DNA of 64,000 nt, taken from contig CAWGXL010000011.1 in the NCBI GenBank assembly GCA_963826535.1, forward strand, positions 64,809 through 128,808. Reading direction: 5' to 3'. A model generated the notes under the pieces. The model ran no database searches and had not been told where the DNA came from. It saw nothing but the letters and a program-made list of their open reading frames with translations. Each line of letters opens with the position of its first letter. Within the stretch, counting starts at the first letter, position 1. Shown piece by piece: positions 1,349 through 22,690 of the stretch. A program made the position numbers and the translations under genes. This DNA is from an uncultured bacterium. GTDB lineage: Bacteria > Patescibacteriota > Microgenomatia > Levybacterales > UBA12049.

Positions 1349-3169
1349 ATGGTTAAGATAGTTGGTATTGCTCAAAAAGATGACGAAGTTATTCTGTATT
1401 ATTCTTTTCAGAGGGGCGGGATAACATTCTTTAAAGAAGTTTCTAGTAAAGATGGATTTTCGTTTGAGGGAAAATCAAATTATATTATCGTAACCGATGA
1501 AAAGAATAAAGAAGATAAGAATTATAAATGGAAGAATATCAAATCCGTAAAGCAAAAAGAAAACTATTATGTTACTTATACGCTTGAGGGAAAAGCAAGT
1601 ACTGAAGCAAACGTGGCTGTTTCACACGACCTTATCCGCTTTACAAAGATAGGAAAAATATCTGCAATTAAAGGTGAATACGCGGTTGTACCACAAATGA
1701 AGTTTAGAAATAGGTTTGTCTGTTATTTTGGCGAGAAAACAATTCAATTAGCATATTCCGGAGACTTTAAAACATGGAAGCTACAAGAAAAAGTTCTTCT
1801 TGAACCTAGAAACGAATTTTTTGATGACACTAATTTAGAAGTCGGCGGTGTATTTACAGAGCAGAATCATATTCTGTTAATTTACTATGTAAAAAAACGG
1901 GATGGTAATTCTATTCGCTACGAAGTGGGAGCGGCTACTTTTAATAAAAAAAATCCAATGGAATTGTTAGATCGAGCTGACGAGCCTATTTGGCAGATCC
2001 CAGAGCAAATGCATACCAAAAAAATAGAGCCTCTTGGTTGTGTATTATTGAAAGATCAATTGATTTTATACTGGCTATTGGGTGAAGATAATATTTATGC
2101 TGTATCATGTCCGGTTCCATTTAAACAAGCAGGTTTAAAAAATAAAATTTTTGCGACACTTAATCGTTTTAAAAATAACCCCATTATCAAGCCGATTTCG
2201 CATCATCCCTGGGAATCCCGAGCTACTTTTAATACAGCAGCTATTTACGCAGACGGTAAAGTGCATTTTGTTTACCGGGCGCTGGGAGATAGCGACTTAT
2301 CGGTATTAGGCTATGCCAGCAGCAAGGACGGAGTGAATATTGATGAGCGGTCAGACTCGCCGATTTATATTCCCCGGGAACCTTTTGAAACTCCGGGACA
2401 GGGTGTACTGGCAAGTATTGCTGACCATTATGCTTGTGGAGGCGGTTATGGAGGCGTGGAGGATCCAAGAATTACGAAAGTTGATGATAAGTTTTATATG
2501 ACATATGTTGCCTTTGATGGCGCAAACCCTCCGCGGGTGGCGCTAACTTCAATAAAGGTAGATGATTTTCTAGGTAAAAAGTGGGATAAATGGGAACGGC
2601 CGAAGCTTATTTCCGCACCGGGCATGGTGAATAAAAACGCGGTTATTTTTCCTGAGAAAGTAAATGGGAAATATGTGGTATTTCATAGAGTATTTCCTAA
2701 TGTTCTAATTGACTTTGTTGATGATTTGAATTTTGATGATTATCTTAAAGGTCAGTATGTTATCACGCCTCGAAAAGGACATTGGGATAGTAAAAAAATC
2801 GGCGCGGGAGCACCCCCAATAAAAACAAAAGACGGATGGCTATTTATATATCAGGCAGTTGGCCAGCATGACTCAAGTAAATATAAAATAGGAGCTATGT
2901 TACTCGATTCCCAAGACCCGACGAAGGTTCTATATCGCTGTAATAAACCGCTTATTACGCCTGATATGGCCTATGAAAATGACGGGCATAAAGCCGGAGT
3001 TGTATATCCATGCGGAGCAGTTGTGAAGGACAATAATCTCATTGTCTATTATGGAGGAGCAGATACGGTTACATGTGCAGCTTCGGAAAATTTAGATAAA
3101 TTCTTGTATGAATTGAAACATAGTCATGAACCAAAACTCCATCGCGTAAGAAGTCAGTTATTTAATTAA
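1349..3169 (+). CDS. Two-domain glycoside hydrolase family 130 (DUF377) protein, beta-mannoside phosphorylase/hydrolase-like
   Basis: Two tandem GH130 modules, each with GxEDPRIT, YYGGAD and PPIKTKDGWL motifs. 606 aa. Confidence 0.7.
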   Translation: MVKIVGIAQKDDEVILYYSFQRGGITFFKEVSSKDGFSFEGKSNYIIVTDEKNKEDKNYKWKNIKSVKQKENYYVTYTLEGKASTEANVAVSHDLIRFTKIGKISAIKGEYAVVPQMKFRNRFVCYFGEKTIQLAYSGDFKTWKLQEKVLLEPRNEFFDDTNLEVGGVFTEQNHILLIYYVKKRDGNSIRYEVGAATFNKKNPMELLDRADEPIWQIPEQMHTKKIEPLGCVLLKDQLILYWLLGEDNIYAVSCPVPFKQAGLKNKIFATLNRFKNNPIIKPISHHPWESRATFNTAAIYADGKVHFVYRALGDSDLSVLGYASSKDGVNIDERSDSPIYIPREPFETPGQGVLASIADHYACGGGYGGVEDPRITKVDDKFYMTYVAFDGANPPRVALTSIKVDDFLGKKWDKWERPKLISAPGMVNKNAVIFPEKVNGKYVVFHRVFPNVLIDFVDDLNFDDYLKGQYVITPRKGHWDSKKIGAGAPPIKTKDGWLFIYQAVGQHDSSKYKIGAMLLDSQDPTKVLYRCNKPLITPDMAYENDGHKAGVVYPCGAVVKDNNLIVYYGGADTVTCAASENLDKFLYELKHSHEPKLHRVRSQLFN

Positions 3170-3172
3170 GCA

Positions 3173-5107
3173 ATGATACAACTGCAACGTTTTTCCGGAA
3201 ATCCAATATTTTTACCTAATGCTGAGAACTCATGGGAACATGAAGCCACTTTCAATGGCTGTGTTGTTAAAAAGGATAAGACTTATCATATGGTTTACCG
3301 CGCGCTCTCCGAGACCCAAAATTATCAGGGAACCTCTATGAAAGTTTCTTCTATAGGATACGCTCAAAGTCCTGACGGACACAATTTTGGTTCCCGCAAA
3401 CTCCTTTTTTCCCCTACGGAAGAATGGGAAATATATGGTTGTGAAGATCCTAGAATTACCTATTTTGATGGGAATTATTATATCTTTTATACCGCTCTGT
3501 CTGTTTTCCCTTTTACAGCATATGGTATAAAGTTAGGCTTGGCTAAAACTAAAGATTTTAAGACATTCGAAAAACATCCTGTTACTACTTTTAATTCAAA
3601 AGCTATGGGGCTTTTTCCTGAAAAAGTGGGGGGTAAAATGGGGGCATTACTTACAGCACACACTGATCTTCACCCGGCAAAAATCGCATTGGCTCTCTTT
3701 GACCGGGAAGAAGATATGTGGTCGCCATATTTTTGGGAAGATTGGTATGAAAATATTAATGAACACATTATTCATCTCCTGCGTGATCTGCGTGATCAAA
3801 TAGAGCTAGGTGCCCCCCCGATTAAAACAAAAGACGGATGGCTTGTAATTTATTCTTATATTAAAAATTATCTGTCTGAAAATAAAAATTTTGGGATTGA
3901 AGCGGTATTACTGGATGGAGATGATCCGAGAAAAGTTCTTGGCAGAACAGAATATCCCATTTTGATTCCTGAGGCTGAATATGAATTGAAGGGTGAGGTA
4001 TCGAATGTTGTTTTCCCTTCGGGAGCTTTGGTGGAGAATGACACGCTCTCAGTTTATTATGGGGCGGCAGATACAAGGATCTGTGTTGCCACTTGTTCTT
4101 TATCCGTATTACTGGATAGTATACGTCCGGAAAAAAAATCGTTCAGTATAAATTATAATGAACATGAAGGTAAATTAGTTCGCTTTGAAGGTAATCCAAT
4201 TATTAGTCCTGTATTGGAACTGGATTGGCAAGCCAGTGGTACTTTTAATCCGGCGGCAATTTATGAAGACGGGAAAGCACATATTCTCTATCGGGCTCAA
4301 TCAAGAGATGGTACTTCGACTTTTGGCTATGCTTCAAGCCGCGACGGGCTTCATATTGATGAGAATCTAGATTATCCTGTGTATTTCCCGCGTGTTGATT
4401 TTGAAAAAAAACCACATCCTTTTGGCAATTCCGGCTGTGAAGATCCGCGTCTTACTAAGATCGGAAACCGTTATTATGTACTATATACAGCTTATAACGG
4501 TGTTAGTTCGCCACGAGTCGCGCTTTCTTCTATAGGCGTTGATGATTTTTTAGCAAAGCGCTGGAATTGGGATCTGCCAAAACTTATTTCGCTTCAGGGA
4601 GTTGACGACAAAGATGCTTGTGTTGTTGAAGGAAAAACGAAAAATACTTATATTTGGTTTCACCGGTTGGGTGACTCTATTTGGATCGAAATTACAGATC
4701 ACATAAATCTTGATGAGAATAATGCGCTTGCCGGAAGCGTTCTTGTCTATCCCAGACCCGATAAATGGGATAGTCTCAAACTTGGCATTGCGGGGCCACC
4801 ATTTGAGACAAAGGAGGGTTGGTTACTTCTTTATCATGGTGTGTCAAAGGAGGGTTCCGTATATAAAGTCGGTACGTTACTTTTGGACTTGCATAATCCT
4901 ACAAAGGTTCTGGCGAGAATTGATGAGCCTATTTTTGAGCCGGAAATGCCTTATGAGCTTGAAGGGCAAATTCCAAACGTTGTTTTTCCCTGCGGTCAGG
5001 TTATTATTAAAGACATGCTGTATGTTTATTATGGAGGAGGAGATAAAGTTGTTGGTGTAGCGACAAGCCCAGTTGAGAATTTGCTAAAAAAACTTTTGAA
5101 GAGATAA
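3173..5107 (+). CDS. Two-domain glycoside hydrolase family 130 (DUF377) protein, paralog of the upstream gene
   Basis: GCEDPRITYFDGNYYIFYTA, YYGAADT and GAPPIKTKDGWL repeated twice. 3-nt spacing from the upstream paralog implies an operon. Confidence 0.7.
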   Translation: MIQLQRFSGNPIFLPNAENSWEHEATFNGCVVKKDKTYHMVYRALSETQNYQGTSMKVSSIGYAQSPDGHNFGSRKLLFSPTEEWEIYGCEDPRITYFDGNYYIFYTALSVFPFTAYGIKLGLAKTKDFKTFEKHPVTTFNSKAMGLFPEKVGGKMGALLTAHTDLHPAKIALALFDREEDMWSPYFWEDWYENINEHIIHLLRDLRDQIELGAPPIKTKDGWLVIYSYIKNYLSENKNFGIEAVLLDGDDPRKVLGRTEYPILIPEAEYELKGEVSNVVFPSGALVENDTLSVYYGAADTRICVATCSLSVLLDSIRPEKKSFSINYNEHEGKLVRFEGNPIISPVLELDWQASGTFNPAAIYEDGKAHILYRAQSRDGTSTFGYASSRDGLHIDENLDYPVYFPRVDFEKKPHPFGNSGCEDPRLTKIGNRYYVLYTAYNGVSSPRVALSSIGVDDFLAKRWNWDLPKLISLQGVDDKDACVVEGKTKNTYIWFHRLGDSIWIEITDHINLDENNALAGSVLVYPRPDKWDSLKLGIAGPPFETKEGWLLLYHGVSKEGSVYKVGTLLLDLHNPTKVLARIDEPIFEPEMPYELEGQIPNVVFPCGQVIIKDMLYVYYGGGDKVVGVATSPVENLLKKLLKR

Positions 5108-5143: not shown

Positions 5144-6055
5144 ATGACATTTCTTGAAAAATATCAACTTCTGAAAAAATCTGTTCCCGTTCAGTCGGTG
5201 ATGATTAGAGAGGGTACAATTGAATGTGAGTATGTGGATTTACTTACTAACAGCAGAAATTGCAACTATTGCTTCGATTCATCTTATCTTATAGATAGTA
5301 TTTATACTTCTGTTGGAGCGTGGAGTAAGAAACTAGTAGATTGTACTTTTGTAACAGAATCGGAAAAGTGTTACAAATGTATTGATTCCAATAAATGTTA
5401 TAACTGTACCTATTTGATGGATTGCAATAGTTGTACAGATTGTCATTTCTCTGCCTTTTTAAACTCGTCCTCTGATTGCTTCGGCTGCGTTAGTCTGACT
5501 CATAAGAAACATTGTCTCTTTAATAAGCAATACACCAAAGAGGGGTATTTTAAAAAATTAAATGAGTTGAAAAAAGAAAGTCCGGAAAAGATATTTGCTC
5601 AAATGCTTGAGTTAAAAAAACAGATACCGCATCCAGCAAGTCAGCAAAAAAATAATGAGAATTGTCCTTATGGTGATTATATATATGATTCAAAAAATAG
5701 TTTCTGGTGTTTTAATAGCTACTCCGTTGAAAATTCTGGCTATACCTTTAGTAGTGTGAACGCAAAGAATTGCTGGGATATATGGTGGTCAGGAAGTGGG
5801 GATAAAAAACTTATTGCAGAGCGATGTTATGAATTAGTTGATTCAGGACGTTCTACTTATGATTGTGCCTTTTTAGCATATTGTTTATTTTGTATGAACT
5901 GCTACTACGGTGCATACCTCAAGAACTGTACAGACTGCTTCGGTTGCGTGGGGTTAACAAATAAAAATACTGCGTTTTAAATAACCAACTAACTAAAGTC
6001 CAGTACGAAAAAGCAGTAAGAGATTTTAAGAGAGAACTTGGGTGGAAATTTTAAG
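5144..6055 (+). pseudogene. Cysteine-rich MTFLEKY-family paralog, frameshifted near the 3' end
   Basis: 278-aa ORF ends at GLTNKNTAF*. The conserved family C-terminus (YCVLNNQLTKVQYEKAVRDFKRELGWKF) continues in the +1 frame to about 6055. This is consistent with a 1-nt deletion relative to paralogs (aataaaaagtactg). Confidence 0.6.
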
Positions 6056-6083: not shown

Positions 6084-6635
6084 CTAAATAGGATCGTCTT
6101 TTAATCTTAGGAGCCATCCGATAAAAGTTGACAATGGATGGAGAAAGAACCAAATAATAAAAAGTATTAGATATAACTCCATACTTAACCTTATATATAG
6201 AGCAGTAAAGAATATGCCTCCTAGGATATAATCAATTTGATCTGCAGGGAACCATGATTTACCGGAGGGAATTTTCAGTTGTCTTTTTAAAAAGCTTTTG
6301 AGAGCATCTCCGAATAACGCACCAAAAGAAGCCAGAAATCCAAAATAAATCGGATTTATAGTATTGTAATTAACAAAAGATACATCTCTGAAAAATTGAA
6401 AGTTATTATATAAAATCGTTTGTAAATATACTGTCACAATACCCGCCACAATTCCAGCTATAAGACCACGTATTGTTTTATGATCGCCCAATATTCTTCG
6501 TTGACGGAACTTCTTATAGAAATCCATTGGATAAGAAAGCTTTTCCAAAACGGGAATCTTTCTCGCAAGAATAGGGGCCAAGTTTCCGAGTCCGGCCGGA
6601 AGAAAGAACCATAGAACAGAGAGGATGATTTTCAT
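6084..6635 (-). CDS. CdsA/CarS-like CTP-transferase family integral membrane protein (CDP-alcohol/CDP-archaeol synthase-like)
   Basis: 183 aa with 5-6 TM helices. GDHKTIRG motif resembles the KTxEG/KTxRG signature of phosphatidate cytidylyltransferase and DUF46 enzymes. Confidence 0.4.
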   Translation of the reverse strand: MKIILSVLWFFLPAGLGNLAPILARKIPVLEKLSYPMDFYKKFRQRRILGDHKTIRGLIAGIVAGIVTVYLQTILYNNFQFFRDVSFVNYNTINPIYFGFLASFGALFGDALKSFLKRQLKIPSGKSWFPADQIDYILGGIFFTALYIRLSMELYLILFIIWFFLHPLSTFIGWLLRLKDDPI

Positions 6636-9762: not shown

Positions 9763-10905
9763 ATGTATAATGTGTTTATGAAAAGGATATTTCCTTTTTC
9801 TGTAATCTTACTTTTAGTACTTCTTATTTCTTCGGGTTTCTATTCTATTGTTCACGCAGCAGATATTAGAAGCAATAATGATCTCTATATTTTCAATAAG
9901 AGTATTCAGGTTGAGACGCCTGTTACAAATGATTTGGTAGCGGCCGGTGGAGATATTGTAGTTGATAATAATGTTAGCGGAAACATTATGGCTGCAGGCG
10001 GCAATTTGCGGATAAATGGAAATACCGAGGGGAGTGTTAGAGTTGCCGGTGGAAATATTGTTATTGAAGGAAACATTGGACGTGATTTAGTGATTGCCGG
10101 GGGATCTGTAAATATTACAGAAACCGCAACAATCGGAGGAGATCTGCTCTTTACAGGAGGAGAACTTACAATGGAGGGTACTGTAAATGGAAAAGCCATG
10201 ATAAACGGAGGTCAAGCGCGAATCGAAGGAACAGTCAATAAACAAGTAGAAGGAAGTTTAGGTAAGTTAGCCTTGGGGTCTCAATCTGTAATTGGCGGAG
10301 ATCTCCGCTACTCATCCCCCGAAAAAGCGATTATTGAAGAAGGCGCAGTTATTAGAGGCACTCAGCAATATACGCCTGTTGAACGACCTAAAAGTAATGC
10401 TGAACAATTTGGCGGCTTCATATCCGCTTTTTCTTTTTATAAATTGATCACCGATATTATTTTAAGCCTTGCGTTTATTTACTTTTTTGGCGCGTTTCTC
10501 CGGCGTTGTCTCACTAGCATTGGGGTATCACCTTTCAGAAACGCAGCATACGGCTTAGCGTTCCTCATCCTTATACCTTTGGTAAGCGTTTTCCTTTTCA
10601 TCCTTATTTGGTTAGGAATTGCCTCATTCCTCTTTTACATTTTAGTACTTATTATTTCTGTTTTTGTTGCCAAAGTTTTTCTGGGTTGGTTTCTTGTCCG
10701 TTGGTGGTACAGGCGCAGTAAAAAAGAATATGTACTTGACTGGAGAGCCGGGGTTATAGGTCCAATCGCACTCTTTCTTATTATTCTAATTCCGCTTATT
10801 GGATGGTTATTTATCGCGATTTTGTATCTGATAAGTATTGGAGCGGTAATCCGCGAACTTGCAATAGTAGCTCAGACACAACAAATATCCCGCAAAAAGA
10901 AATAG
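9763..10905 (+). CDS. Membrane protein with bactofilin-like beta-helical repeats and a C-terminal polytopic domain
   Basis: Signal/TM at the N-terminus. Repeated AAGG(D/N)IxIxGNxxG units. Four to five C-terminal TM helices. Confidence 0.4.
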   Translation: MYNVFMKRIFPFSVILLLVLLISSGFYSIVHAADIRSNNDLYIFNKSIQVETPVTNDLVAAGGDIVVDNNVSGNIMAAGGNLRINGNTEGSVRVAGGNIVIEGNIGRDLVIAGGSVNITETATIGGDLLFTGGELTMEGTVNGKAMINGGQARIEGTVNKQVEGSLGKLALGSQSVIGGDLRYSSPEKAIIEEGAVIRGTQQYTPVERPKSNAEQFGGFISAFSFYKLITDIILSLAFIYFFGAFLRRCLTSIGVSPFRNAAYGLAFLILIPLVSVFLFILIWLGIASFLFYILVLIISVFVAKVFLGWFLVRWWYRRSKKEYVLDWRAGVIGPIALFLIILIPLIGWLFIAILYLISIGAVIRELAIVAQTQQISRKKK

Positions 10906-10974: not shown

Positions 10975-11883
10975 ATGACTTTTCTTGAAAAATATGAACT
11001 CCTTATAAAATCTATTCCGGTTCCAGCTGTGACGATTGGCCCAGATACCATTGATTGTGAATACGTTGATAATACCTATAGAAGTAAAAACTGCCATTAC
11101 TGTATCAACGGATCAGACCTCATAGGAGGTATATATACAAATTTGGGATTGGGGATTAAACTTGTAGATTGTGCTTCAGTGGTAGAGTCAGAAAAATGTT
11201 ATGAGTGTAATGATTGCAATAAGTGCCACAGCTGCACATACCTAATGGATTGTAACAGCTGTACGGATTGCCATTTTTCTGCTTTTTTAAATTCTTGTAC
11301 TGAATGCTTCGGTTGTGTAGCGTTAACTCATAAGAAGTATTGTATTTTCAATAAACAATACACAAAAGAAGAATATCTAAAAATGATAATAGAATTAAAA
11401 AAAGAAAAGCCGGAAAAAAATCTTGAAAAAATGGTTGAATTGAAACACAAGATACCGCATCCGGCAAGTCAACAAATAAATAACGAGAATTGTCCTTACG
11501 GGGACTATATATATAATTCTAATAATTGTTATTGGTGTTTTAATAGTTACTATTGTGAAAATTCCGGCTATAATTACGTGAGCGGTAGGGTGAATAACTG
11601 TTGGGATCTCTTTTTCTCAGGTGGAAACATAATTAAAAAAACTATTTCTGAGCGTTGTTATGAATTTGTGGATTCTGCTAATTGCTACGATTGTGCATTT
11701 TTAAACCTTTGTGAAAGTTGCACAAATTGCGACTATGGTACGTGGCTTTTAAACTGTTCCGATTGCTTTGGTTGTGTTGGGTTAAAAAATAAAAAGTACT
11801 GTGTTTTAAATAATCAGCTTACGAAAGTGCAATATGATAAAACTGTTAGAGAGATTAAGAATGAGCTTGGATGGAAATCTTAG
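10975..11883 (+). CDS. Cysteine-rich MTFLEKY-family protein (period-3 CxxC repeats), intact copy
   Basis: 302 aa. Shares the N-terminus MTFLEKYxLLxKSIPVPA, central CTDCHFSAFLNSCTxCFGCV...HKKYCIFNKQYTKEEY and C-terminus CVLNNQLTK..EIKNELGWK with five other copies in the window. A TGTTATAAT extended -10 sits at 10921. Confidence 0.7.
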   Translation: MTFLEKYELLIKSIPVPAVTIGPDTIDCEYVDNTYRSKNCHYCINGSDLIGGIYTNLGLGIKLVDCASVVESEKCYECNDCNKCHSCTYLMDCNSCTDCHFSAFLNSCTECFGCVALTHKKYCIFNKQYTKEEYLKMIIELKKEKPEKNLEKMVELKHKIPHPASQQINNENCPYGDYIYNSNNCYWCFNSYYCENSGYNYVSGRVNNCWDLFFSGGNIIKKTISERCYEFVDSANCYDCAFLNLCESCTNCDYGTWLLNCSDCFGCVGLKNKKYCVLNNQLTKVQYDKTVREIKNELGWKS

Positions 11884-11911: not shown

Positions 11912-14900
11912 TTAATTTACTTTCCCATCCGGCTGCATAGCAGTGCCCCCTCCGCCAAAATTTACAGTCCCATTTACTCCATTAGGTGCTTGATATGGAG
12001 GCTGAATACCAGGCTGGTTATTCATTGGCGGTGGTGGAGGTTGGTTTTGAGGTGTACCATTGGCTGGCTGTGGAACATTATTTTGTACAGGAGAGTAGTT
12101 GCCTTGAACCAGAGGCGGATTTTGCCCAGTACCAGACGGTTCAGGATTTTGCGCCGGTGGATTGTTGGGTTGTGAAGGAGGCTGACCTGACTGTCCGTCG
12201 GTAGGATTTTGCTGTCCCTGGCCAAACGGATAGTTCTGACTTGGGTCTGCGGGATTTGTCTGTGGGTTTACCGGCTGACCTACTTCTCCGGCAGGTGGGT
12301 TTTGCCCGGTACCAGGTGGCACCTGGTTATTTGTTTGCTGCGACGCATCCTGGGGTTGAGCTTGCAATTCAGCGGCGGAAGTATTGTTTGATACGTTGTC
12401 AATTGCATTTAAAATCATGATCGCTGTTTCGTCATTTTGTGTTTTTGCTTGATTGAGCTGCTCGATCAATTGCTGAATTTCTTCACTTGTTACCGCATCT
12501 GTCAAATTAAGCAAAGACGTTGCTAATTTATTACCTTTTTGGCTGGCTTCATCTACTTTGGTATGTAAATTCGTATACAACTCTTTTTCATCAGCATTTT
12601 CCGCGGTGATTGGATTGGCAATAAGAAGTAATGGCACTTTTATTTTCATTATTTCATTTTGCTTGATTGCATCCTGAATTGTGGCCAGTATCTCGGCAGC
12701 CAATGGATCGCCTTGATCTTTGGCCTGTTGTAGTTGGGTTTGTAATTGTTCTATGTCGTCATCAGATGTAATATCTGTAATATTTAAAATTTGTTCCGCG
12801 AGGGGATGATTCTGTTTCCCTGCTTCGCTCAGTTTGTCATAAAGATCTGAGAATTTCCTTTTATTTTCAGGTTCGGCTAAATAAAGCGGGTTGCCGAGTT
12901 GCTTCATGAACTTTTTAAATTTAGTTGTGGGATTGGCTTCTAATGCTTCTTCCGAAGCTTTGCTAATTTCACTATTCATGAGTGCGAGAATGTCGGTTGC
13001 CAGTTCGTTTTCAGTATCTTTCCCTTTGTTCAAATCTTCCATTATTTTTTCAATTGCCGATTGAGGCGAATCGGGTTTTAGTTGAAGAATTGCGGTGGCA
13101 ATCACATTGTTGTTCTGGCTTTCAACTACAACTTTATCATGCAGTTCTTTGAATTTATCGCGGGTAGCTACCGATGCTACTGTTTCCGGATTAACTATTG
13201 ATAAGAGAATTTTCTTTTCCCGCTCGATTGCTTTCAGCTGTTGGGCTATACCCGCTGCCAGGTCGAGTATTTCTTTTGCTAACTCGTCACCTTTCTCTTT
13301 CGCATCATTAAGTTTTTGTCTTATATCGCTAATCTCCTTGTCAGGCGTAGACGCGTTTACGGCAAGAATTGCGGCATAAACCGGATTTGCTCCAGTGCCT
13401 GCTGTGACTGTTTCTTTAGTTGCTTTATCTACTTCTGTGCCTGCTGCGGCAGCTTCTGTTTTTGCTTTATCTGCCTCTGTGGGCGCAGGAGTTACATCTG
13501 CGGTTGCTTTATCTATTCCAGTGCTTGCTGAGTTTGTTGCATTGCTTGCTGCGACAACTTTATCGTGTAATTTCTTGAATATTTCCAGGTCGAATCCAGC
13601 TGTTACATCTTCAGGCTTGGCAATTTTCTGTAAAATTACCTTGAATTCGCTATCGGTTAACAGCGTTACATCGCCTGCTTGTCCACCCTTGTTGAAAATG
13701 AATGCATTGATATTTTCATTATAGTCAATAACGATTGTATCCCCCGGCACGAATTTTTTGGAAATGATGGCGAGTGCGATCGGATTTTCTATGGTTGTTT
13801 GGATAAGACGGCGCAGGGGTCTGGCTCCATAGACAGGATCGTATCCATCTTTGGCTAGTTTAGCAATTGCTTTCTCAGTAATTTGTAAATGGAAGCCTTG
13901 CTCCTTTAATAGCCCGGCAGTCTTGGCGATACCAAGCCGCACTATGCCCGCCATGTGCTCAGGGCGAAGCGGCTTAAATATAACTACCTCATCGAAACGG
14001 TTGAGAAGCTCGGGACGTAAGAACTTAATCAGCTCATCTTTGACGATTTTTTGCAGTTCTGTAAATTGCTTGTTTAATTGTTCAGTTGTTAGTTTGACCT
14101 CTTTACCTTGTTTACTTAGGAATTGCTGGATGATAGCGCTCCCGATATTTGAGGTACATATAACTATAGTATTTTTAAAGGAAATAACATTTCCCTTGTT
14201 GTCTGTTAGTCTACCGTCTTCCAGAAGTTGTAATAGAATATTAAAAACGTCGGGATGAGCTTTTTCAATTTCATCAAACAAAACGATTGAGTATGGCTTC
14301 TTTCTAACCGCTTCTGTCAGTACGCCTCCTTCTTCATATCCAACATAGCCCGGAGGCGCGCCTATAAGCTTGGCAACTTCATGCTTTTCCATAAACTCGG
14401 ACATATCCAGACGAGCCATGGCATCATCGCGCCCGAATAATAATTCGGCTAAGGTTTTGGCAAGTTCAGTTTTTCCTACTCCAGTGGGACCAAGAAAGAC
14501 AAAAGAGGCGGTTGGTCTCTGGCCTGATGCGAGTCCAATTCTTCCACGTCGCACTGCTTCGGAAACCGCTACTACAGCTTCTTCTTGGTCGATAAGTCTC
14601 TGATGAATGCGTTCTTCGAGTTTTAGCAATTTTTCACTCTCGTCTTCAGTCAATTTGGTAATGGGAATTCCTGTCCAAGCGCTGACGACTTTCTCAATAT
14701 CGGCTTTTTTCACATCGCTGTCACCCCGTTTGCCTGTGTCTACCTGCAGTTTAACTTCAGCGCATCCCTCATCAAGCAAATCAATAGATTTATCAGGTAG
14801 AAAACGTTCTCCGATATATTTCTTGGCTAGTTTGATTGATTCTTTGAGCGCGTCATCCGGAATTTTAACACGATGGAATTTTTCATATTTTGTACGCAGC

Positions 14901-16276
14901 ACCTTCATCATTTCGAAGGCATTTTCATCACTTGGTTCTTCAGCGGTTACAGGTTGGAAACGGCGCTCAAATGCTTTATCTTTTTCAAAATGCTTGCGGT
15001 ATTCGGTTGTTGTGGTCGCGCCTATAATTTGCAACTGGCCGCGGGCCAGATATGGCTTTACGATATTGGCCGCGTTCATGCCCTCGCTTTCTCCCGCACC
15101 CATAAGAGAATGAATTTCATCTATAAACAGAATAATTGTTCCATTACTACCTAGGACTTCTGTAATTACCCCTTTGATTCTTTCTTCGAATTCGCCTCTA
15201 TGACTTGCACCAGCGACTAATGATGCAACATCCAGTTGAAAGATTCTTTTATTTAATATATCTTTGGGGACAGCATTAGCAACGATTTTTTGCGCTAACC
15301 CTTCGACTATTGCAGTCTTTCCCACACCTGTCTCGCCAATAATAATCGGATTGTTTTTGGTCCTGCGTAAAAGGATATGGAGGATGCGGTCAATTTCTTT
15401 TTCGCGCCCTGCGACAGGATCAAGTTTGCCTTCGCGGGCTTCAGCCGTTAAGTCAATGGCGTATTTTTCTAAAGTTGATTTCCTACCATAACCGCCGGTA
15501 GTTGATTTTGAAAGTTTATCTACAACTACTTCTTTTTTCAGACCAAGTGTTTGCAAAGTTTGTGCGGTTGAGTAATTAGGACCAAAAAGGACTACCAGAA
15601 TATCTTCCGGTGAAATGAAAGTTGATCCACGCATTTTCGCGTCCCGATAAGCTTGGTCAAAAACCTGCTGGGACACATTACTAAGTACCGGCTGACCTTT
15701 GTATGTTCCGACTCTTTCTTTGGCTTGAATTTCTTTGGAAAGCCTGCCTACATCAACCGCAAGTTCACCCAGTAATTTACTTATTTGTTGATCATATAAC
15801 AATCCAAATAATAACTGGTCAGGTTCAATAGATTGCTGATGGATTCTTCTAGATTCTTCTTGTGCGTGCGTTAATACCAGACTTGCTCTTGGATCCAGAT
15901 GTGAAAGGGCTGACGTATCTACTTTTGCAGAGGTGTTACCAAGGGCCGGATTTGTCTGTCCTTTTGGTAATCCGGCGCCAGGATGTCCTTCCGGAGGAGC
16001 TTGTCCTGCTTGTCCTGGGGGTGGATTCCCTGCACTAACAGGTGCTTGATTTTGTTGAGGACCGGCACCCGGTTGAGGAGGCGGTTGTTGTGCTGAATCT
16101 GGCGGTGGTGGCTGCTGATTATTTTGCTGAGGTTGATTTGACCCCTGTGGCGTATTTGCTTGGGCATCCTGGTTATTATATTGTTGATTTGGATCTTGAG
16201 GCGCCGATTGAACAGGTGGCGCCTGGGCTCCTTGTGCTTCCCCGTCTTTTTTTTGATTGAATAATTTTCCAAACAT
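11912..16276 (-). CDS. ClpA/ClpB-type double-AAA+ unfoldase with Pro/Gln-rich disordered tails and a C-terminal about 90-aa helical-repeat region
   Basis: Clp_N-like domain. D1 has Walker [16 protein letters not shown] and Walker [10 protein letters not shown]2 has [35 protein letters not shown] and GARPLRR sensor-2. The linker between D1 and D2 is too short for a ClpB M-domain. No [IVL]G[FL] ClpP-docking loop is seen after [11 protein letters not shown]. Residues about 900-1290 form repeats homologous to the neighbouring giant protein. N- and C-terminal roughly 125-160 aa are P/Q/N/G-rich. Confidence 0.75.
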
Positions 16277-16306: not shown

Positions 16307-19300
16307 TTACTTCTTTGCAATCTCTTCTTCTTCAGAAAGCGCTTTTGGTTCTTCTTCTTTTTTTATTCCCACTTCAACTTTTTCCTCTTTTTCATCTCCC
16401 AGCTTCAACACTGAAATTACTGTTTTTGCGGCTTTAAGTTTGACGTTGAGATAATCACTTATTTCCTGATAAGAGAATCCTCCCAAAAGCAGGAAAGGTA
16501 GAATGGTTCCCACTTTCTTGAGTCCATCATTTTTCTTATCTGTCTCAGGTGCGAGTAAAAGTGCGAGGGTTTCTTTTATTTCCTCAATCTCTTTCGTAAT
16601 CCATTCTATCCTTCCTTGTTTGTCGTCATTGAAGCCGAAAGGTACAGGAAGAGTCCGATAATTTTCTTCCCACATCTTTTCGATTTCCGTATAATCTTTT
16701 TGCGTAACGGATTGCAGTTTATTACTTTGGGGTACATCAGTTGCATTAATTTGAGAATGTGGCGAAACAGAATGTTTTGCTGCGGTTAAAATACTATCCG
16801 CAGTCTTGTCGCCTTTTTGACTTTTTTCGATAAGCTTCTGGCGTAGATTTTCTATTTTTTGCCGATCAGCCGGTATTTGGACATTTGTTGGGGTGGCGAG
16901 GTTTGCAAGTATTACATGCTCTTTGTGCATTTCTGTGATTTGAGATTTATCCCTAGCCAGAGACATGGCTTCATAACGGACTATATCTTTCATGGTCGGG
17001 AGCTTTAGTTCAACCATAGCCAGGATTTCATTGGAGACCTCGGGTGTGACAATGTTGGTGGCCGCAAATGAGGGGGTTGATATTTCAACTGAAGGCGCTT
17101 CTATATTGACTGCCATGGTTTGGGCTGCTTCCGCGTGTTTGGTTGCAACAGATACTTTGGTTTCTTCGTCAAGGGAAATGGATTTGAGAACATCTTTGGC
17201 TGCATCTTGTTTGGTTTGTAGATAAGAGACGATTTCGGATTGAGAGAAGCCTCCGACTAAAAGGAAGGGCAGAATGTTGGCTACTTCAGAGAGTCCCTGA
17301 TTTACTTTATCCTGATCAGCAGAGTTTAAGAGATTGGTTAAATTACCAATTTTCTCAATATCATCCTTAATCCATTCAGTTCTTGTTCCGGCCATGCCTT
17401 CAGGGACTTCCATATTATTGTAGTTTTCTGTCCACATTTTCTTGACATCTGCTAATTCTTCGGGGGTGACAGTTTGGATGCGGTTGGTTGAGGGAAGAGA
17501 TATTGCCTGTGGCAAAGCCCCTAAAACAGAAGTAGCTACAGATTCACCTTTAAGTTTTTCTTCTTTTAATTTATCACTTAATTTTTGGATATCTGCGCTG
17601 GTTGTTGATTTGTTCACGCTCAAGAGAGAAGTGGCAAGCTCATTGCCGCTTTGACTGGATTTGGCTATGGAATCATGTAATTTGGTCAGGCGCTCACGAT
17701 CAACCGGCGAGGAGATAGAGGCCGGATTGGCGATTTGTTGCAAAACTTGTCTAACTTTGTTGGTCTGTACAGATTTATTAACTGTTGACATAACAGAGGT
17801 AGCTAGAAGATTTGCGCCCTGCTGGCCTTTGTCAAGTTGTTCTCGGATCTTTTGCAGATCTGCATTTGAGGTACTATCGTTTACAGAAAGAATAGTACTG
17901 GCAAGTTCATTCTTCTTATCTTTTTCCTTAACTAGTATCTCATGTAACTTTGTGAATGCAACACGTTCCGATTCAGAAGTGACTGAAGCCGGATTGACGA
18001 TTTGCAGGAGAACGTTTTTGAAGTCTGATGATTGAGTTGCGCTAAAAGCCGCTTTTTGCATAGCAGAACTGGCTGCATTTAAAACTATATCCGCAGTTGC
18101 GTTGCCTTTTTGGCTTTCTTCGAGGAGTTTTTCCCGGAGCTTATCAAATCTAACTCTTTCTGTACTGACAGTAGCTGACGCAGGGTTGGCAATTCTTTCA
18201 AGTGTTTCGCGAACTTTTTGCACCTCTCCAAGTTGCGATTTGTCTCGGGACATTGACATGGTCTCAAAGCGGGCAATATCACGCATTCTGGGTAATTTCA
18301 ATTCAACCATAGCCAGGATTTCATTGGAGACCTCGGGTGTGACAATGTTGGTGGCCGCAAATGAGGGGGTTGATATTTCAACTGAAGGCGCTTCTATATT
18401 GACTGCCATGGTTTGGGCTGCTTCCGCGTGTTTGGTTGCAACAGATACTTTGGTTTCTTCGTCAAGGGAAATGGATTTGAGAACATCTTTGGCTGCATCT
18501 TGTTTGGTTTGTAGATAAGAGACGATTTCGGATTGAGAGAAGCCTCCGACTAAAAGGAAGGGCAGAATGTTGGCTACTTCAGAGAGTCCCTGATTTACTT
18601 TATCCTGATCAGCAGAGTTTAAGAGATTGGTTAAATTACCAATTTTCTCAATATCATCCTTAATCCATTCAGTTCTTGTTCCGGCCATGCCTTCAGGGAC
18701 TTCCATATTATTGTAGTTTTCTGTCCACATTTTCTTGACATCTGCTAATTCTTCGGGGGTGACAGTTTGGATGCGGTTTAAGGAAGGGACACTGATGCTT
18801 GCCTGCTGGGCGGCTGTTGCAAGTACATCTGCGGCAACCGATTCACCTTTAGTCTTGGCTTCATTTAATTTGTCACTTAATTTTTGGATATCTGCGCTAG
18901 TGGTTGATTTATTTACAGATAACAGCGAGGTCGCAAGTTCATTTCCCTTCTGACTTTCTTTTGTCAGGGCTTCATGCAGTTTAGTCATTTTTTCTTTATT
19001 AATAGCTGTAGCTGTGGCGGGGTTGGCGATTTGTTGGAGAACGTCTTTGACTTTGGTCATGTTTTGTGATTTTTGTAAACTGCTACTAATTGTTGTAAGT
19101 ACTTGTGAAGACATAGCAGAGTCTTTTGATTGCTGGAGTTTTTCGCTGATTTTTTCAAGCTCTGTTTGTGTTGTGATATCTTTTACTTGCAAGATTTGGC
19201 CTGCTAATTGGTTGTTATTCTCTTTACTTTCGTGTGCAAGCATGTCGTGGAGTTTGGTCATCTTTTCACGATCAGATGAATTGGTAGCTGAAGCCGGGTT

Positions 19301-21523
19301 GGCGATTTGCTGGAGTACGCTTTTAACTTTGGTCATGTTTTGTGCTTTCTGCAGGCTACCATTGATTGTAGAAAGCAACTGCGAGGACATGGTAGATTCT
19401 TTTGATTGCTGGAGTTTTTCGCTGATTTTTTCAAGTTCTGCTTGTGAAGTAGTATCTTTTACTTGCAATATAGAGGATGCAAGTTGATTATTATTCTCTT
19501 TACTTTCATGTGCAAGCATGTCGTGGAGTTTGGTCATCTTTTCACGATCAGATGAATTGGTAACTGAAGCCGGGTTGGCGATTTGCTGGAGTACGCTTTT
19601 AATTTGGGTAGCTCTGACTGCATTGCTTACCTGAGAGGCTGCTGAGTTGCCAACTGTGCTCTCTTTTACTAATTGATCCCTTATTTTGTCAAGTTCATTT
19701 GCTGTGGTTTTGTCGTTAACAGAGAGAATTGAGCTGGCTAATTGATTACTCTTTTCTTTACTTTCCTTCGAGAGCATGTCATGGAGTTGAGACATTCTCT
19801 CACGATCTACAACATTTGATGTTTGGGCCGGATTGGCAATTTGTTTTAGTATGTTTCTCAAATGTGAATCTGAGGCTTGAACGTTTCTTTGTGATTGATT
19901 ATTGGCGGCTGAATTTATAGCATTTAAGATAGTTGTCGCTACGAGATTTCCCTGTTGAGCCTCTCTGACTATTCTTTCATTCATATTTGCATATCTTTCA
20001 CGTTCTATCGTTGAGGTAACCGCGACCGGGTTACCAATTTTTTCAAGCATTTCACTCATCTTCATTACTTCTTGTCTTTGGCTTGCGTTATTGGATGAAA
20101 GCGCGGTGTCGTATCTGGCGATATCCCGCATTGTAGGAAGCGGGATACTTGCAAAACTTAAAACTTCGGCATTTATTTGAGCATGTGGAACAGAATATGT
20201 TAGAGCGGTACCAGCTCCCTGAGTTTCTCTAATTATTTCTTTGGCTGCGCCGCCAGGCCTCATAGTAGGAGTGAGTGCAATTGGAATATTCACCGACTTT
20301 TTTGTAAATGGTAAAGTCAAGGCAGTGCCTCCAGGCTGAGATCCGGGCGGATATCCTGTAGGTGAAGATGGCGGAACCATCTTATTGCCTAATAAAGTAA
20401 CAAGGTTTTTCATCATTGCGTTATCACCGGAAAAGTTAGCAGCGTAGTCTAAAAAGATTTGCAATAAAATCCAGGGAAGTAGAATAACGATCCATAACAT
20501 TATTAGCGCAACAACATAAAGCATGAAAGTCTCTGTAAGATTAACACTGTTGGTCGGAGTAACGAACTGCCTGGGTCCTCCAAGGAGAATATTTACAGCG
20601 GTGGGATATATAATTTTAGTCGGGTCTTGAATAGCGGGATTGACGAACTGTAAGGGAATTGCCTGTCTCCACATAAATACTAAACCCTGGAGGAAAATCG
20701 CGAAGAGCGGACCATATAATAGCCAGCGGAAGAATTCTCCAATCCAAATCTTGCCAGTATTGCGAACCGGATAAAATAAAAGCAGGAGTGGGAATACCGG
20801 GGATACTATTATAAAGAACCATAAAATTATTTTTCTAATCAATAATATGCCTACCATAACATAGTACGTAAGCGCGGTTAATTTAGTCAGTAATAATGAA
20901 ATAAAGGCTGATTCAGCGTTATAATCACCAAGCAGGCGTAATCCGACAAAGTCCTGGTAGTTCCAACCTACAAAGAGTAAGTCTTGATTGGATATGCAGT
21001 CAGGGGGACAATTAGTGGTGCCTGAACGTAAGAAGAATCCTTGTATTAGATCGGTGAATTGATATAGAAATTGCAGTATTGCGTATGACAAGGCAATTAA
21101 TATCAGTACAGCAGTAAATCTGGGAATAAAACGCATAATAGTGAGACTTCTTCCTCTAGAAATTATAATTATCATGGAGGTTGCTAAAATAACCAATATT
21201 AGAAGAGGCAAAACAATATAGAGGACTATTGTCCACCAAAATTGTGCCAATGGATTAGCCGCGTTGTCGCAATTACGATCGGCTACCTTGGTTACACAAA
21301 CCCATTGGTAATTTAGCAATGTCCAGTTTAGGACGTAACCTGATCGAGCAGCGTTTTTGCCAATAAAGGTTACTTCAGGGTCTACTACCCATAACCCTGC
21401 GGCGGGGGATGCTGTTTGTTGTTGGGCCGGGGCGGGAGCTTGTGCATTGGTAACTGCTACCGGATAAACCAAGGAAACAAAACAATATATTATTGCAAGA
21501 AAAATGGGCAGAAATTTTTTCAT
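16307..21523 (-). CDS. Giant (1738 aa) polytopic membrane protein with an array of about 92-aa helical repeats; N-terminal region VirB6/TrbL-like in topology
   Basis: Signal peptide, then at least 6 TM helices in the first roughly 400 aa. Then about 10 repeats of QIANPAxxTNSSDREKMTKLHDMLAHESKENNNQLASSIL...KISEKLQQSK. A large module (IQTVTPEELADVKKMW...LPFLLVGGFSQSEIVSYL) is present 3 times, two of them identical at nucleotide level. Confidence 0.7.
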   Translation of the reverse strand: MKKFLPIFLAIIYCFVSLVYPVAVTNAQAPAPAQQQTASPAAGLWVVDPEVTFIGKNAARSGYVLNWTLLNYQWVCVTKVADRNCDNAANPLAQFWWTIVLYIVLPLLILVILATSMIIIISRGRSLTIMRFIPRFTAVLILIALSYAILQFLYQFTDLIQGFFLRSGTTNCPPDCISNQDLLFVGWNYQDFVGLRLLGDYNAESAFISLLLTKLTALTYYVMVGILLIRKIILWFFIIVSPVFPLLLLFYPVRNTGKIWIGEFFRWLLYGPLFAIFLQGLVFMWRQAIPLQFVNPAIQDPTKIIYPTAVNILLGGPRQFVTPTNSVNLTETFMLYVVALIMLWIVILLPWILLQIFLDYAANFSGDNAMMKNLVTLLGNKMVPPSSPTGYPPGSQPGGTALTLPFTKKSVNIPIALTPTMRPGGAAKEIIRETQGAGTALTYSVPHAQINAEVLSFASIPLPTMRDIARYDTALSSNNASQRQEVMKMSEMLEKIGNPVAVTSTIERERYANMNERIVREAQQGNLVATTILNAINSAANNQSQRNVQASDSHLRNILKQIANPAQTSNVVDRERMSQLHDMLSKESKEKSNQLASSILSVNDKTTANELDKIRDQLVKESTVGNSAASQVSNAVRATQIKSVLQQIANPASVTNSSDREKMTKLHDMLAHESKENNNQLASSILQVKDTTSQAELEKISEKLQQSKESTMSSQLLSTINGSLQKAQNMTKVKSVLQQIANPASATNSSDREKMTKLHDMLAHESKENNNQLAGQILQVKDITTQTELEKISEKLQQSKDSAMSSQVLTTISSSLQKSQNMTKVKDVLQQIANPATATAINKEKMTKLHEALTKESQKGNELATSLLSVNKSTTSADIQKLSDKLNEAKTKGESVAADVLATAAQQASISVPSLNRIQTVTPEELADVKKMWTENYNNMEVPEGMAGTRTEWIKDDIEKIGNLTNLLNSADQDKVNQGLSEVANILPFLLVGGFSQSEIVSYLQTKQDAAKDVLKSISLDEETKVSVATKHAEAAQTMAVNIEAPSVEISTPSFAATNIVTPEVSNEILAMVELKLPRMRDIARFETMSMSRDKSQLGEVQKVRETLERIANPASATVSTERVRFDKLREKLLEESQKGNATADIVLNAASSAMQKAAFSATQSSDFKNVLLQIVNPASVTSESERVAFTKLHEILVKEKDKKNELASTILSVNDSTSNADLQKIREQLDKGQQGANLLATSVMSTVNKSVQTNKVRQVLQQIANPASISSPVDRERLTKLHDSIAKSSQSGNELATSLLSVNKSTTSADIQKLSDKLKEEKLKGESVATSVLGALPQAISLPSTNRIQTVTPEELADVKKMWTENYNNMEVPEGMAGTRTEWIKDDIEKIGNLTNLLNSADQDKVNQGLSEVANILPFLLVGGFSQSEIVSYLQTKQDAAKDVLKSISLDEETKVSVATKHAEAAQTMAVNIEAPSVEISTPSFAATNIVTPEVSNEILAMVELKLPTMKDIVRYEAMSLARDKSQITEMHKEHVILANLATPTNVQIPADRQKIENLRQKLIEKSQKGDKTADSILTAAKHSVSPHSQINATDVPQSNKLQSVTQKDYTEIEKMWEENYRTLPVPFGFNDDKQGRIEWITKEIEEIKETLALLLAPETDKKNDGLKKVGTILPFLLLGGFSYQEISDYLNVKLKAAKTVISVLKLGDEKEEKVEVGIKKEEEPKALSEEEEIAKK
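17009..17487. repeat. Perfect about 479-bp direct repeat inside the giant gene, copy 1
   Basis: Region 17009-17487 is identical to 18302-18780 (offset 1293 nt). This was checked line by line. Antisense ORFs 16992..17225 and 18102..18518 translate identically. Confidence 0.85.
18302..18780. repeat. Perfect about 479-bp direct repeat inside the giant gene, copy 2
   Basis: See copy 1. Encodes the duplicated module VTPEELADVKKMWTENYNNMEVPEGMAGTRTEW.... Confidence 0.85.
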
Positions 21524-21529
21524 GTTTTT

Positions 21530-21829
21530 TTACTTAGCAAAACCCGGAATGTTTAAAATGTCGACTGCGAGAAATTGGAAAAAAACAAATCCAAAAATTG
21601 CGAGCAATAAACCGGCGATCGCGCAGACTATATAGCTTTTTCCAACATTGAGCTGGTGTGGTTCTCCGCGGGAAGTTAAGATTGTATATCCGCCCCAAAT
21701 TATCATTATCAATGATAGACCGGCAACAAAACCTATTCCGTAACCGTAAAATTTTTGCACAAATCCGATTGGGTCATTTGGCCAGCAGCCAAAGTCTGTT
21801 TGGATTTCATTTAATGCGCAGGCAGCCAT
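21530..21829 (-). CDS. Small two-helix membrane protein, VirB2/TrbC- or VirB3-like (pilin-like)
   Basis: 99 aa with two hydrophobic helices (GFVAGLSLIMIIWGGY and SYIVCAIAGLLLAIFGFVFF) separated by a short polar loop. 6-nt gap to the giant gene. Confidence 0.4.
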   Translation of the reverse strand: MAACALNEIQTDFGCWPNDPIGFVQKFYGYGIGFVAGLSLIMIIWGGYTILTSRGEPHQLNVGKSYIVCAIAGLLLAIFGFVFFQFLAVDILNIPGFAK

Positions 21830-21927: not shown

Positions 21928-22305
21928 TTAAGAATGCACATTATGTGAAAGGAGCTTTTTCACATTATCCACTATATCCTCGGGCGTATTATTTGACTTG
22001 AGAAGAAAGGCTTTTGCCCCCCAATTTTTTAAGAGATCTTCGGCATTGGCGTAAATATTCGTTAATACAAGAATAGGAATTTTATTTAGTACAGGATCAT
22101 TCTTTGCAAGCTTGAGAACATCAAAACCACTTACTCTCGGCATTATGAGGTCAAGAAGGACGACATCAGGCTTAAAAGACTTCATCTTTTTAATTCCATC
22201 CTGACCATCAACTGCTGTTTGAACGTCAAATCCCTCATGCACAAATTTATCACGATACATCTCAAGTAGAATTACATCATCCTCTACCAATAAAATCTTA
22301 TTCAT
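21928..22305 (-). CDS. Stand-alone CheY-like receiver-domain response regulator
   Basis: 125 aa REC domain only (LVEDD, DLIMP phospho-acceptor region). Overlaps the upstream paralog by 8 nt. Confidence 0.7.
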   Translation of the reverse strand: MNKILLVEDDVILLEMYRDKFVHEGFDVQTAVDGQDGIKKMKSFKPDVVLLDLIMPRVSGFDVLKLAKNDPVLNKIPILVLTNIYANAEDLLKNWGAKAFLLKSNNTPEDIVDNVKKLLSHNVHS

Positions 22306-22690
22306 ATTTGTCCTTTTTAGAATTACTTAAAACTTCATTTGCTTTTTTTACCACATCTTCAGGTGTTGTATTGGCTTTGATCAAGCAATAAACCGGGCTA
22401 TACTCCATAATCGCTTCAAGTACTTTCCCATCCACATTTAGATTAGTTAATACCATAATCGGAACAGTTTCGCCCCAACTGTCAGCACGCAACTTCTTCA
22501 TCATTTCCATTCCGTTCAATTTCGGTAAAGCAAGATCCAGTAAGATAATATCCGGTTTACGATCCAGTGCCAGCATTAATCCCTTCTCACCGTCTTCCGC
22601 GTTAACAGGATTAAAGTTGCTAAATTGAAATTTATCCTTATACATGTCAGCCAGCACCTGGTCATCTTCTACTATTAATACACTCTTCAT
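22298..22690 (-). CDS. Stand-alone CheY-like receiver-domain response regulator (paralog)
   Basis: 130 aa REC domain only (IVEDD, DLALP). No output domain. Confidence 0.7.
   Translation of the reverse strand: MKSVLIVEDDQVLADMYKDKFQFSNFNPVNAEDGEKGLMLALDRKPDIILLDLALPKLNGMEMMKKLRADSWGETVPIMVLTNLNVDGKVLEAIMEYSPVYCLIKANTTPEDVVKKANEVLSNSKKDKYE

Follow-up and report, generated by a model that had tools for sequence, protein, structure and literature searches.

The window, a stretch of 64,000 nucleotides from an uncultured bacterium of the order Levybacterales (contig CAWGXL010000011.1), contains on its (-) strand three closely spaced genes, which code for a small candidate pilin, a giant membrane protein of 1738 amino acids (16307-21523) and a Clp-type ATPase of 1454 amino acids (11912-16276). 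The gap between the pilin-like open reading frame (ORF) and the giant gene is 6 bp, and that between the giant gene and the Clp gene is 30 bp. The two large ORFs are as described in an earlier, sequence-only reading of this DNA, which claimed that the ATPase, an AAA+ unfoldase, carries the same repeat as its giant neighbour. Our analysis bears this claim out: the C-terminal part of the Clp contains four units of a repeat that is homologous to that of the giant protein. The features of the two proteins and the pilin candidate are as follows (residue numbers are those of the protein concerned).

11912-16276, (-) strand: class-I Hsp100/Clp-type AAA+ ATPase, 1454 aa, with the Pfam domains Clp_N, AAA, AAA_lid_9, AAA_2 and ClpB_D2-small
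15887-16276, (-) strand: N-terminal Q/N/P/G-rich low-complexity region of the Clp, residues 1-130, 58 % Q+N+P+G
13667-15886, (-) strand: Clp core (N-domain, D1 and D2), residues 131-870, E 1.6e-201 to E. coli ClpB
13475-13642, (-) strand: first half of Clp unit 1 (U1), residues 879-934, HMM (hidden Markov model) match of 20-44 bits
13394-13474, (-) strand: A/T/K/E-rich insert of 27 aa that splits U1, residues 935-961, missing in the L001 orthologue, AlphaFold2 (AF2) pLDDT (per-residue confidence) <50
13247-13393, (-) strand: second half of U1, residues 962-1010, HMM match over profile positions 35-79
12965-13216, (-) strand: Clp unit 2 (U2), residues 1021-1104, 56.6 bits with the giant-only HMM, orthologous to U2 elsewhere
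12665-12916, (-) strand: Clp unit 3 (U3), residues 1121-1204, 48.8 bits, 77 % identity to unit 3 of L008
12389-12640, (-) strand: Clp unit 4 (U4), residues 1213-1296, 53.4 bits, 46-47 % identity to unit g5 of the giant protein
11915-12388, (-) strand: C-terminal P/Q/N/G-rich low-complexity tail of the Clp, 66 % Q+N+P+G, with a short conserved 'G..MQP' near its end
16307-21523, (-) strand: extended VirB6/TrbL-like membrane protein of 1738 aa, with three cassettes (motif A, repeat units, module B) after its membrane domain
20414-21523, (-) strand: VirB6-like signal peptide and polytopic membrane domain, residues 1-370 (244 homologues, AF2, Foldseek)
18800-20056, (-) strand: units g1 to g5 of the giant repeat (g1 a half unit), residues 490-908, HMM matches of 49-96 bits
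17501-18211, (-) strand: units g6 to g8 of the giant repeat (g6 a half unit), residues 1105-1341, by HMM
16673-16918, (-) strand: giant repeat unit g9 (half unit), residues 1536-1617, by HMM
18434-18787, (-) strand: module B copy 1, residues 913-1030, a helical domain, conserved, not present in the Clp, AF2 pLDDT ~90
17141-17494, (-) strand: module B copy 2, residues 1344-1461, inside a recent internal duplication (925 nt, 83 % identity)
16382-16732, (-) strand: module B copy 3, residues 1598-1714
21530-21829, (-) strand: VirB2-like pilin candidate, 99 aa, two hydrophobic helices, PF18895 T4SS_pilin E 0.0097 (sub-threshold)

An HMM built from eight units of the giant protein, with no Clp sequence included, matches the Clp five times (56.6, 53.4, 48.8, 20.1 and 16.8 bits) and matches no other ORF in the six frames of the window. 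Scored against this giant-only profile, the region 870-1300 of the Clp reaches 193.7 bits (58.9 for the best domain), while the maxima obtained with 2000 residue shuffles are 8.6 bits (total) and 13.1 bits (best domain) and the reversed sequence gives -4.4. Both regions form helices and have many charged residues and glutamines, which is what one would expect if they resembled each other only in composition (a K/E/Q/L-rich helical bias), and the sequence-only reading had named this as the outcome that would overturn its claim. The scores show that the similarity is homology, since 193.7 bits lie far above the shuffle maximum of 8.6. As for a frame or assembly artefact, the identical fusion is present in 21 other independently assembled genomes. 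We give these two explanations virtually no chance.

The conserved positions of the repeat also coincide in the two proteins: L4, I7, N9-P10, L25-H26, G-N 36-37, L-A 39-40 and I-L 43-44 are conserved in both, as is a 'KG[DN]xLAxxIL' in the second half of the unit, and the information per column in 77 Clp units correlates with that in 158 VirB6-like units (r = 0.76). The unit is about 84 aa long and divides into two half-units of about 42 aa, in each of which a first helix leads through a KG[ND] turn into an 'LAxxIL' helix. The motif 'QKGNxLAxxxL' brings to mind a helical repeat of the Sel1/TPR type, which we ruled out (no Pfam match and no fold match); the repeat belongs to no Pfam or NCBIfam family, and the fold search returned no solved structural relative.

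The sequence-only reading counted four to five units in the Clp; there are four, the first of which is split by the 27-aa insert, and the L001 relative has four uninterrupted units. The region was correctly placed at 12406-13576, its true extent being slightly wider (12389-13642), and the two peptides that had been quoted as examples are indeed in the Clp, at residues 1220-1278 (unit 4) and 1027-1065 (unit 2). AF2 predicts that the Clp units are well-folded helical bundles (pLDDT ~90). The identity between U4 and g5 is the highest seen between a Clp unit and a giant unit; within the giant protein, the tandem units g3 and g4 are 85 % identical.

That a chaperone shares such a repeat with the adjacent gene had been called unusual, and the databases agree. 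We searched 1.84 billion cluster representatives exhaustively with a profile of 12 window units (E <= 1e-3). The search returned 139 proteins, 134 of which are new: 84 of these have the VirB6-like membrane domain and module B (up to 2790 aa and 20 units), 30 are fragments that bear module B only, and the Clp proteins are represented by P0140 (1444 aa, 62 % identical to the window Clp, four units), the fragment P0141 and about 8 further C-terminal fragments of the same kind. Within this set of representatives the repeat is thus restricted to the VirB6-like family, where its copy number ranges from 1 to 20, and to one subfamily of Clp. The family becomes visible through the exhaustive profile search; a word-indexed homologue search with the Clp repeat region matched only P0001, and an exact-sequence look-up of the window Clp found no record. 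P0001 might be taken for a separate repeat protein of 445 aa, but we rejected this: it is the 3' part of a Clp gene that is split by a one-base homopolymer indel. On the contig concerned (L001, from ENA), the Clp and VirB6-like genes are each split by such an indel (A5 and G5; positions 9960-9966 and 4243-4250), and gene callers report the pieces as separate proteins, P0001 included. These indels are most likely nanopore assembly errors; the contig suffix 'np1212' suggests a nanopore assembly.

The ATPase has the domains of a class-I Hsp100/Clp protein: Pfam AAA (residues 311-423), AAA_lid_9, AAA_2 (587-764, E 7e-70) and ClpB_D2-small. The Walker A and B motifs are intact in both rings (GETGVGKT and ILFIDEIH in D1, Walker A GPTGVGKT in D2). 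Its closest solved relative is E. coli ClpB (E 1.6e-201); the match to ClpC has E 1e-200. Like ClpB/Hsp104 and ClpA/ClpC, it has a Clp N-domain, two AAA+ rings, a D2 pore loop and a D2-small domain. Unlike them, it lacks the M-domain (the alignment skips ClpB residues ~410-527), no IG[FL]/VGF loop for ClpP docking is seen in its D2 when judged by eye against the ClpB alignment, and the tyrosine of the D1 pore loop of ClpB (AGAKYRGEFEER) is replaced by a histidine (residues ~361-372, about 15160-15195(-)). This histidine is present in all the Levybacteria Clps that we aligned; the tyrosine of the D2 pore loop is kept and that loop is intact. The window Clp has in addition Q/P-rich tails at both ends and a C-terminal array of four helical units, of about 420 aa. 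It scores below every NCBIfam equivalog cut-off: 863.9 bits, in two stretches, with TIGR03346 (ClpB; cut-off 1232.1), 693.7 with TIGR02639 (ClpA; cut-off 993) and 650 with TIGR03345 (ClpV/TssH; cut-off 884.95). The designation 'Clp-type ATPase' therefore stands as far as the class-I Hsp100 domains are concerned, but the protein is neither a canonical ClpB nor a ClpA/ClpC, since it has neither M-domain nor ClpP loop. From these motifs, it is probably a free-standing unfoldase.

ClpV/TssH, a ClpB-family ATPase that works without ClpP, is specialised for a membrane-associated secretion apparatus and owes its specificity to an accessory domain. The window Clp resembles it in being an Hsp100 encoded with a membrane apparatus, and by its TIGR03345 score. 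It differs from it in that this score is below the cut-off, in that no genes of a type VI secretion system were found among the window ORFs scanned, and in that its accessory element is C-terminal and copied from the partner protein, while ClpV has a modified N-domain.

A region comparable to the N-terminal low-complexity stretch is present in all the Clp family members aligned, and the C-terminal tail exists also in the repeat-less Clps of other Levybacteria. Near the end of these tails (residues ~1440-1454 in the window; also L001, P0214, P0221, P0222 and P0230) is a short conserved motif, 'G..MQP' in the window, which one subclade extends to 'MQP..AYNYSGIP.S.RP..Y.SPQ.RQEE.E'. It may be a docking peptide.

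The membrane domain of the giant protein (residues 1-370) has 244 homologues, which are typically 700-750 aa long. The assignment of the family to Levyibacteriota rests on the records that bear source names, Candidatus Levybacteria or Patescibacteria (the candidate phyla radiation, CPR). The Pfam TrbL/VirB6 model PF04610 matches 34 of 61 close family members (best E 2.2e-07), and the window protein itself gives no PF04610 match at E <= 0.01. The AF2 model of the domain, made from 108 sequences, has a pLDDT of ~90 and five long helices (residues 91-367) after the signal peptide. Foldseek aligns it with TrwI/VirB6 of the R388 type IV secretion system (T4SS), 8rt9_F (probability 0.92, E 0.27, target TM-score 0.46) and then 8rtd_L (probability 0.87); these are the only high-probability matches in the PDB and their E-values are not significant, and the profile of the VirB6-like family matched nothing among the PDB sequences. 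Membership in VirB6 by sequence and fold is thus borderline, and at family level only.

The architecture is that of an extended VirB6, defined by at least 5 hydrophobic helices and a large C-proximal hydrophilic domain (PMC12857230): five long helices are predicted by AF2, ahead of ~1300 hydrophilic residues. The extended VirB6 proteins of Rickettsiales, for example, have the same layout (five or more hydrophobic helices, then a large hydrophilic region), and a pilin-like neighbour is another point in common. In contrast with them, the window protein is not beside virB4, its hydrophilic region is made of the repeat and of module B, neither of which has a Pfam family, and the conserved neighbour of the Levybacteria protein is a Clp ATPase. 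The consensus order of the family is membrane domain, P-rich linker, motif A ('LSIPKMRDIARYE'), half repeat unit, helical module B and acidic tail; the window protein has three such cassettes, with nine units altogether. One segment of the giant gene was recently duplicated (nt 2537-3452 versus 3836-4745, 925 nt, 83 % identity). It spans a repeat unit, module B and motif A, and the two copies of module B are nearly identical as protein.

To see how far the association of the genes is conserved, 85 loci with a VirB6-like gene can be compared: 80 species representatives from a genome collection, loci from metagenome assemblies, and the window itself. The pilin-like gene is directly upstream of the VirB6-like gene in 79 of them. 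A Clp of the same type follows directly downstream in 73; ten loci end at a contig edge, and two have no Clp despite room for it. VirB6-like and Clp genes are therefore adjacent in 73 of the 75 informative loci, with a median ORF gap of 40 bp, and the order pilin-like, VirB6-like, Clp is almost always conserved. The only exceptions with enough flanking sequence, L037 and L069, have VirB6-like genes (4 units each) with no pilin-like gene upstream and no Clp within 10 kb downstream; these genes may be second copies.

The match of the pilin-like ORF to PF18895 has a score of 16.4 bits (cut-off 26.6), the two hydrophobic helices are visible in its sequence, and its homologues in other loci likewise match PF18895 weakly. 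In many loci of the repeat-bearing clade, an ORF of 400-480 aa on the opposite strand, about 5 kb upstream, matches the pilin-like query (L013 4125-5405(-), L017 2142-3578(-), L021 3052-4422(-) and similar); its product may be a larger protein that includes a VirB2-like domain. In 47 of the 85 loci (for example L002 19150-21531 and L008 22094-24529), the Clp gene is followed by a second Clp-like paralogue, of ~800 aa, which is absent from the window, where we looked for it. The one that we inspected (L002) has N-terminal hydrophobic segments and a degenerate Walker A in D1 (GDPGSGRES). Such a paralogue may also belong to the system.

The T4SS of Patescibacteria, with VirB4, VirB3/PrgI, VirB6 and arrays of VirB2-like pilins, belong to the same superphylum and also combine VirB2-like pilins with VirB6-like proteins, but the Levybacteria triad is separate from virB4. 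Levybacteria assemblies have been scored as VirB4-positive (PMC12102498, Table S1), and VirB6 homologues are described as 'scarce' in Microgenomatia, with no mention of a Clp or AAA+ partner (PMC12102498). The family found here is a possible location of this 'missing' VirB6. Our literature searches found no link between Clp and VirB6 or between Levybacteria and ClpB, and no description of the triad, so that the pilin-like/VirB6-like/Clp system appears undescribed.

Most of the Clps at this locus have no repeat (47 of the 69 in our tree), and in these the D2-small domain runs directly into the low-complexity tail. The 22 repeat-bearing Clps, with 2 to 5 units each, are monophyletic, with no repeat-less member among them, in a neighbour-joining (NJ) tree of 726 columns of the Clp core that carries no support values; on this tree, the basal branches have 2 or 3 units and the crown has 4. 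The best match of each of the 77 full-length Clp units in the Clp of another genome has 43-96 % identity, and it is the unit at the same position wherever the numbers of units match. In every case this is higher than the best identity with any VirB6-like unit (29-49 %) or with those of the same genome (18-47 %). The VirB6-like unit nearest to a Clp unit is usually the last full one before module B. At the DNA level, blastn detects no similarity between the Clp and giant genes of the window (best E 2.8). The values of dN/dS (the ratio of nonsynonymous to synonymous substitution rates) between close genome pairs are 0.036-0.082 for the repeats and 0.015-0.035 for the core, and are approximate because dS is saturated.

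The sequence-only reading had suggested that the two genes exchange repeat cassettes. Cassette exchange or gene conversion is rejected by the blastn result and by the identity matrices, in which Clp units are positional orthologues across genomes; the single elevated value, between U4 and g5, has no support at the DNA level as a sign of exchange. The positional orthology, the absence of DNA similarity between the genes and the low dN/dS point instead to a single, ancient event in the ancestor of one clade, in which the Clp gene captured a unit from its VirB6-like neighbour, followed by local amplification and vertical inheritance. The insertion occurred between the D2-small domain and the low-complexity tail, what was inserted was a full unit, most like the last VirB6-like unit before module B, and the array has since been under purifying selection.

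The repeat was also proposed to be 'substrate-like'. In such a mechanism, the Clp would grip and unfold the VirB6-like repeats, for instance in order to remodel the membrane protein or extract it, its own copies being an auto-inhibitory or competing pseudo-substrate. It is true that the Clp motor works by threading and has kept its D2 pore loop intact, and that the two genes are co-transcribed, judged by their position. However, the units are predicted to be folded bundles, unlike degron-like disordered tags; the disordered Q/P-rich tails, which are found family-wide, would make better targets for the Clp to engage; VirB6-like proteins with many repeats occur together with repeat-less Clps; and we know of no Hsp100 that carries copies of its own substrate. 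We consider this mechanism very unlikely. Nothing was found in favour of the related suggestion of a 'templated recognition'.

What, then, could the repeat do in the Clp? The module must work in the cytoplasm, since it is carried by a soluble ATPase that has no signal peptide, and the VirB6-like array would therefore be cytoplasmic too, as in the canonical topology of VirB6. The C-terminus of an Hsp100 hexamer is at the exit face of D2, which is where ClpP docks on ClpA/ClpC and where HSP101 contacts the pore of PTEX (the Plasmodium translocon of exported proteins). Because of this location, and because it was copied from the membrane partner, the Clp array is well placed to tether the exit face. 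We propose that it tethers the unfoldase to the cytoplasmic array of the VirB6-like protein, or to a partner that both share, and we give this proposal about an even chance of being right. The module would hang from the D2 face of the hexamer, and tethering would occur by module-to-module packing or by the binding of a common element such as module B. The unfoldase might then feed unfolded polypeptide to a VirB6-like translocon, or pull pilin or other clients from it, and the repeat-less Clps of other Levybacteria would fulfil this role by contacts that are weaker or of another kind. In type IV secretion, substrates are in an unfolded state when they cross the membrane (PMC12857230).

Whatever the mechanism, the genomic data strongly suggest that the Clp and the VirB6-like protein are functionally linked, and their co-assembly is a reasonable reading, since the gene pair is conserved phylum-wide, and the module was fused once and has been kept under purifying selection. 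The fusion of domains is classic genomic evidence that two proteins act together, and here it names a pair of domains that may bind. If docking is real, the poorly understood CPR bacteria would have a secretion or pilus machine that is powered in a new way; if it is not, the locus is a clean and datable case of domain capture between neighbouring genes. Two questions about T4SS are concerned: what unfolds the substrates before they cross the membrane (PMC12857230), and what the hydrophilic domains of extended VirB6 proteins, which have no known role (PMC12857230), are for.

The analogy with known motors allows a more speculative extension of this proposal, which we hold only tentatively: Levybacteria may have an AAA+-driven membrane machine, in which a ClpP-independent Hsp100 devoid of M-domain, docked on an extended VirB6-like array, would power export or the dynamics of a VirB2-like pilus. 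In PTEX, the D2 face of the HSP101 hexamer is docked on EXP2, the membrane pore, through which the hexamer threads proteins in unfolded form. PTEX is a functional analogue of the mechanism that we propose, and its HSP101 chains (6e10/6e11) are related to the window Clp (E ~1e-141). It differs in being eukaryotic, in that its pore and adaptor proteins are unrelated and in that motor and pore have no repeat in common; docking is observed there, and only deduced for Levybacteria. Such a machine would be a bacterial counterpart of PTEX, and the hydrophilic domains of extended VirB6 proteins would obtain their first assigned function, the fusion of the repeat being the 'Rosetta stone' that exposes the contact.

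Several observations weigh against the docking proposal and the history on which it is built. In most Levybacteria, although not in the window, the cluster is preceded by hrcA-grpE-dnaK-dnaJ, and the Clp might simply be a chaperone of the general stress response that owes its place to inherited synteny. The window ORFs that we scanned contain no VirB4- or VirD4-like domain: the genes that accompany VirB6 in a T4SS locus, such as virB4, are not alongside, and the pilin-like ORF is the only T4SS-like neighbour. The VirB6-like repeats have expanded independently of those of the Clp, since L020, L030 and L038 have 12-17 units beside a repeat-less Clp, which shows that the repeat in the Clp is not needed for the job of the gene pair. 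Plain hydropathy of the giant protein allows six membrane segments, which would put its C-terminus outside; the five long helices that AF2 predicts after the signal peptide would make the C-terminus cytoplasmic, and we tentatively prefer this topology. To this we add the NJ tree without support values and the saturated dS mentioned above.

Some of these facts would fit a neutral accretion. The Clp would then be the general disaggregase or unfoldase of the lineage, and local illegitimate recombination would have copied part of the gene next door into the 3' end of the Clp gene. What was copied would remain there as a generic helical spacer or as an oligomerisation tail, unconnected in any specific way with the VirB6-like protein. 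Insertions of this type most likely come from an adjacent gene, 47 of the 69 Clps at the locus have no repeat, and the cluster is usually beside the dnaK operon. We regard this explanation as unlikely, considering that the dN/dS of the repeat is 0.04-0.08, that positional orthology is kept across 22 species-level genomes with 2 to 5 units, that the donor family conserves the same positions, and that the two genes are adjacent, with gaps of ~40 bp, in 73 of 75 informative loci.

Another explanation is that the module binds neither itself nor the neighbouring protein but a common third partner (a secretion substrate or effector, the pilin or a nucleic acid, for example). Both proteins would carry the module so that this client is brought to the unfoldase first and to the membrane protein next. 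The conservation of the same positions in Clp and VirB6-like units (r = 0.76) is expected of a shared binding function, a copy number that varies from 1 to 20 in the VirB6-like proteins is typical of binding arrays of the avidity type, and the numbers of repeats in the two proteins are independent. On the other hand, the loci examined contain no gene for a candidate ligand that varies together with the repeat, and the conserved positions (NP, KGN, LAxxIL) resemble helix-packing and turn residues, so that their conservation may be merely structural. We consider a common ligand possible but doubtful.

Regarding the surroundings of the triad in the window, the position that hrcA-grpE-dnaK-dnaJ occupies in other genomes is taken by two-component genes on the same strand, a MASE1-PAS-PAS histidine kinase (22771-25212(-)) and two single-domain response regulators (21928-22305(-) and 22298-22690(-)), so that regulation may differ in this genome. 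On the other side, immediately downstream of the Clp gene and convergent with it, lies one of six paralogues that code for a Cys-rich protein of ~300 aa with an internal duplication and no Pfam family, 56-83 % identical to each other (5144-5980(+), 10975-11883(+), 46351-47256(-), 47289-48197(-), 48346-49128(-) and 49291-50199(-)). Last, we note that the window also contains two tandem GH130 genes, of the mannooligosaccharide phosphorylase type (1349-5107(+)), and a CDP-archaeol synthase-like (CarS) gene (6084-6635(-)), which is unusual in a bacterium.

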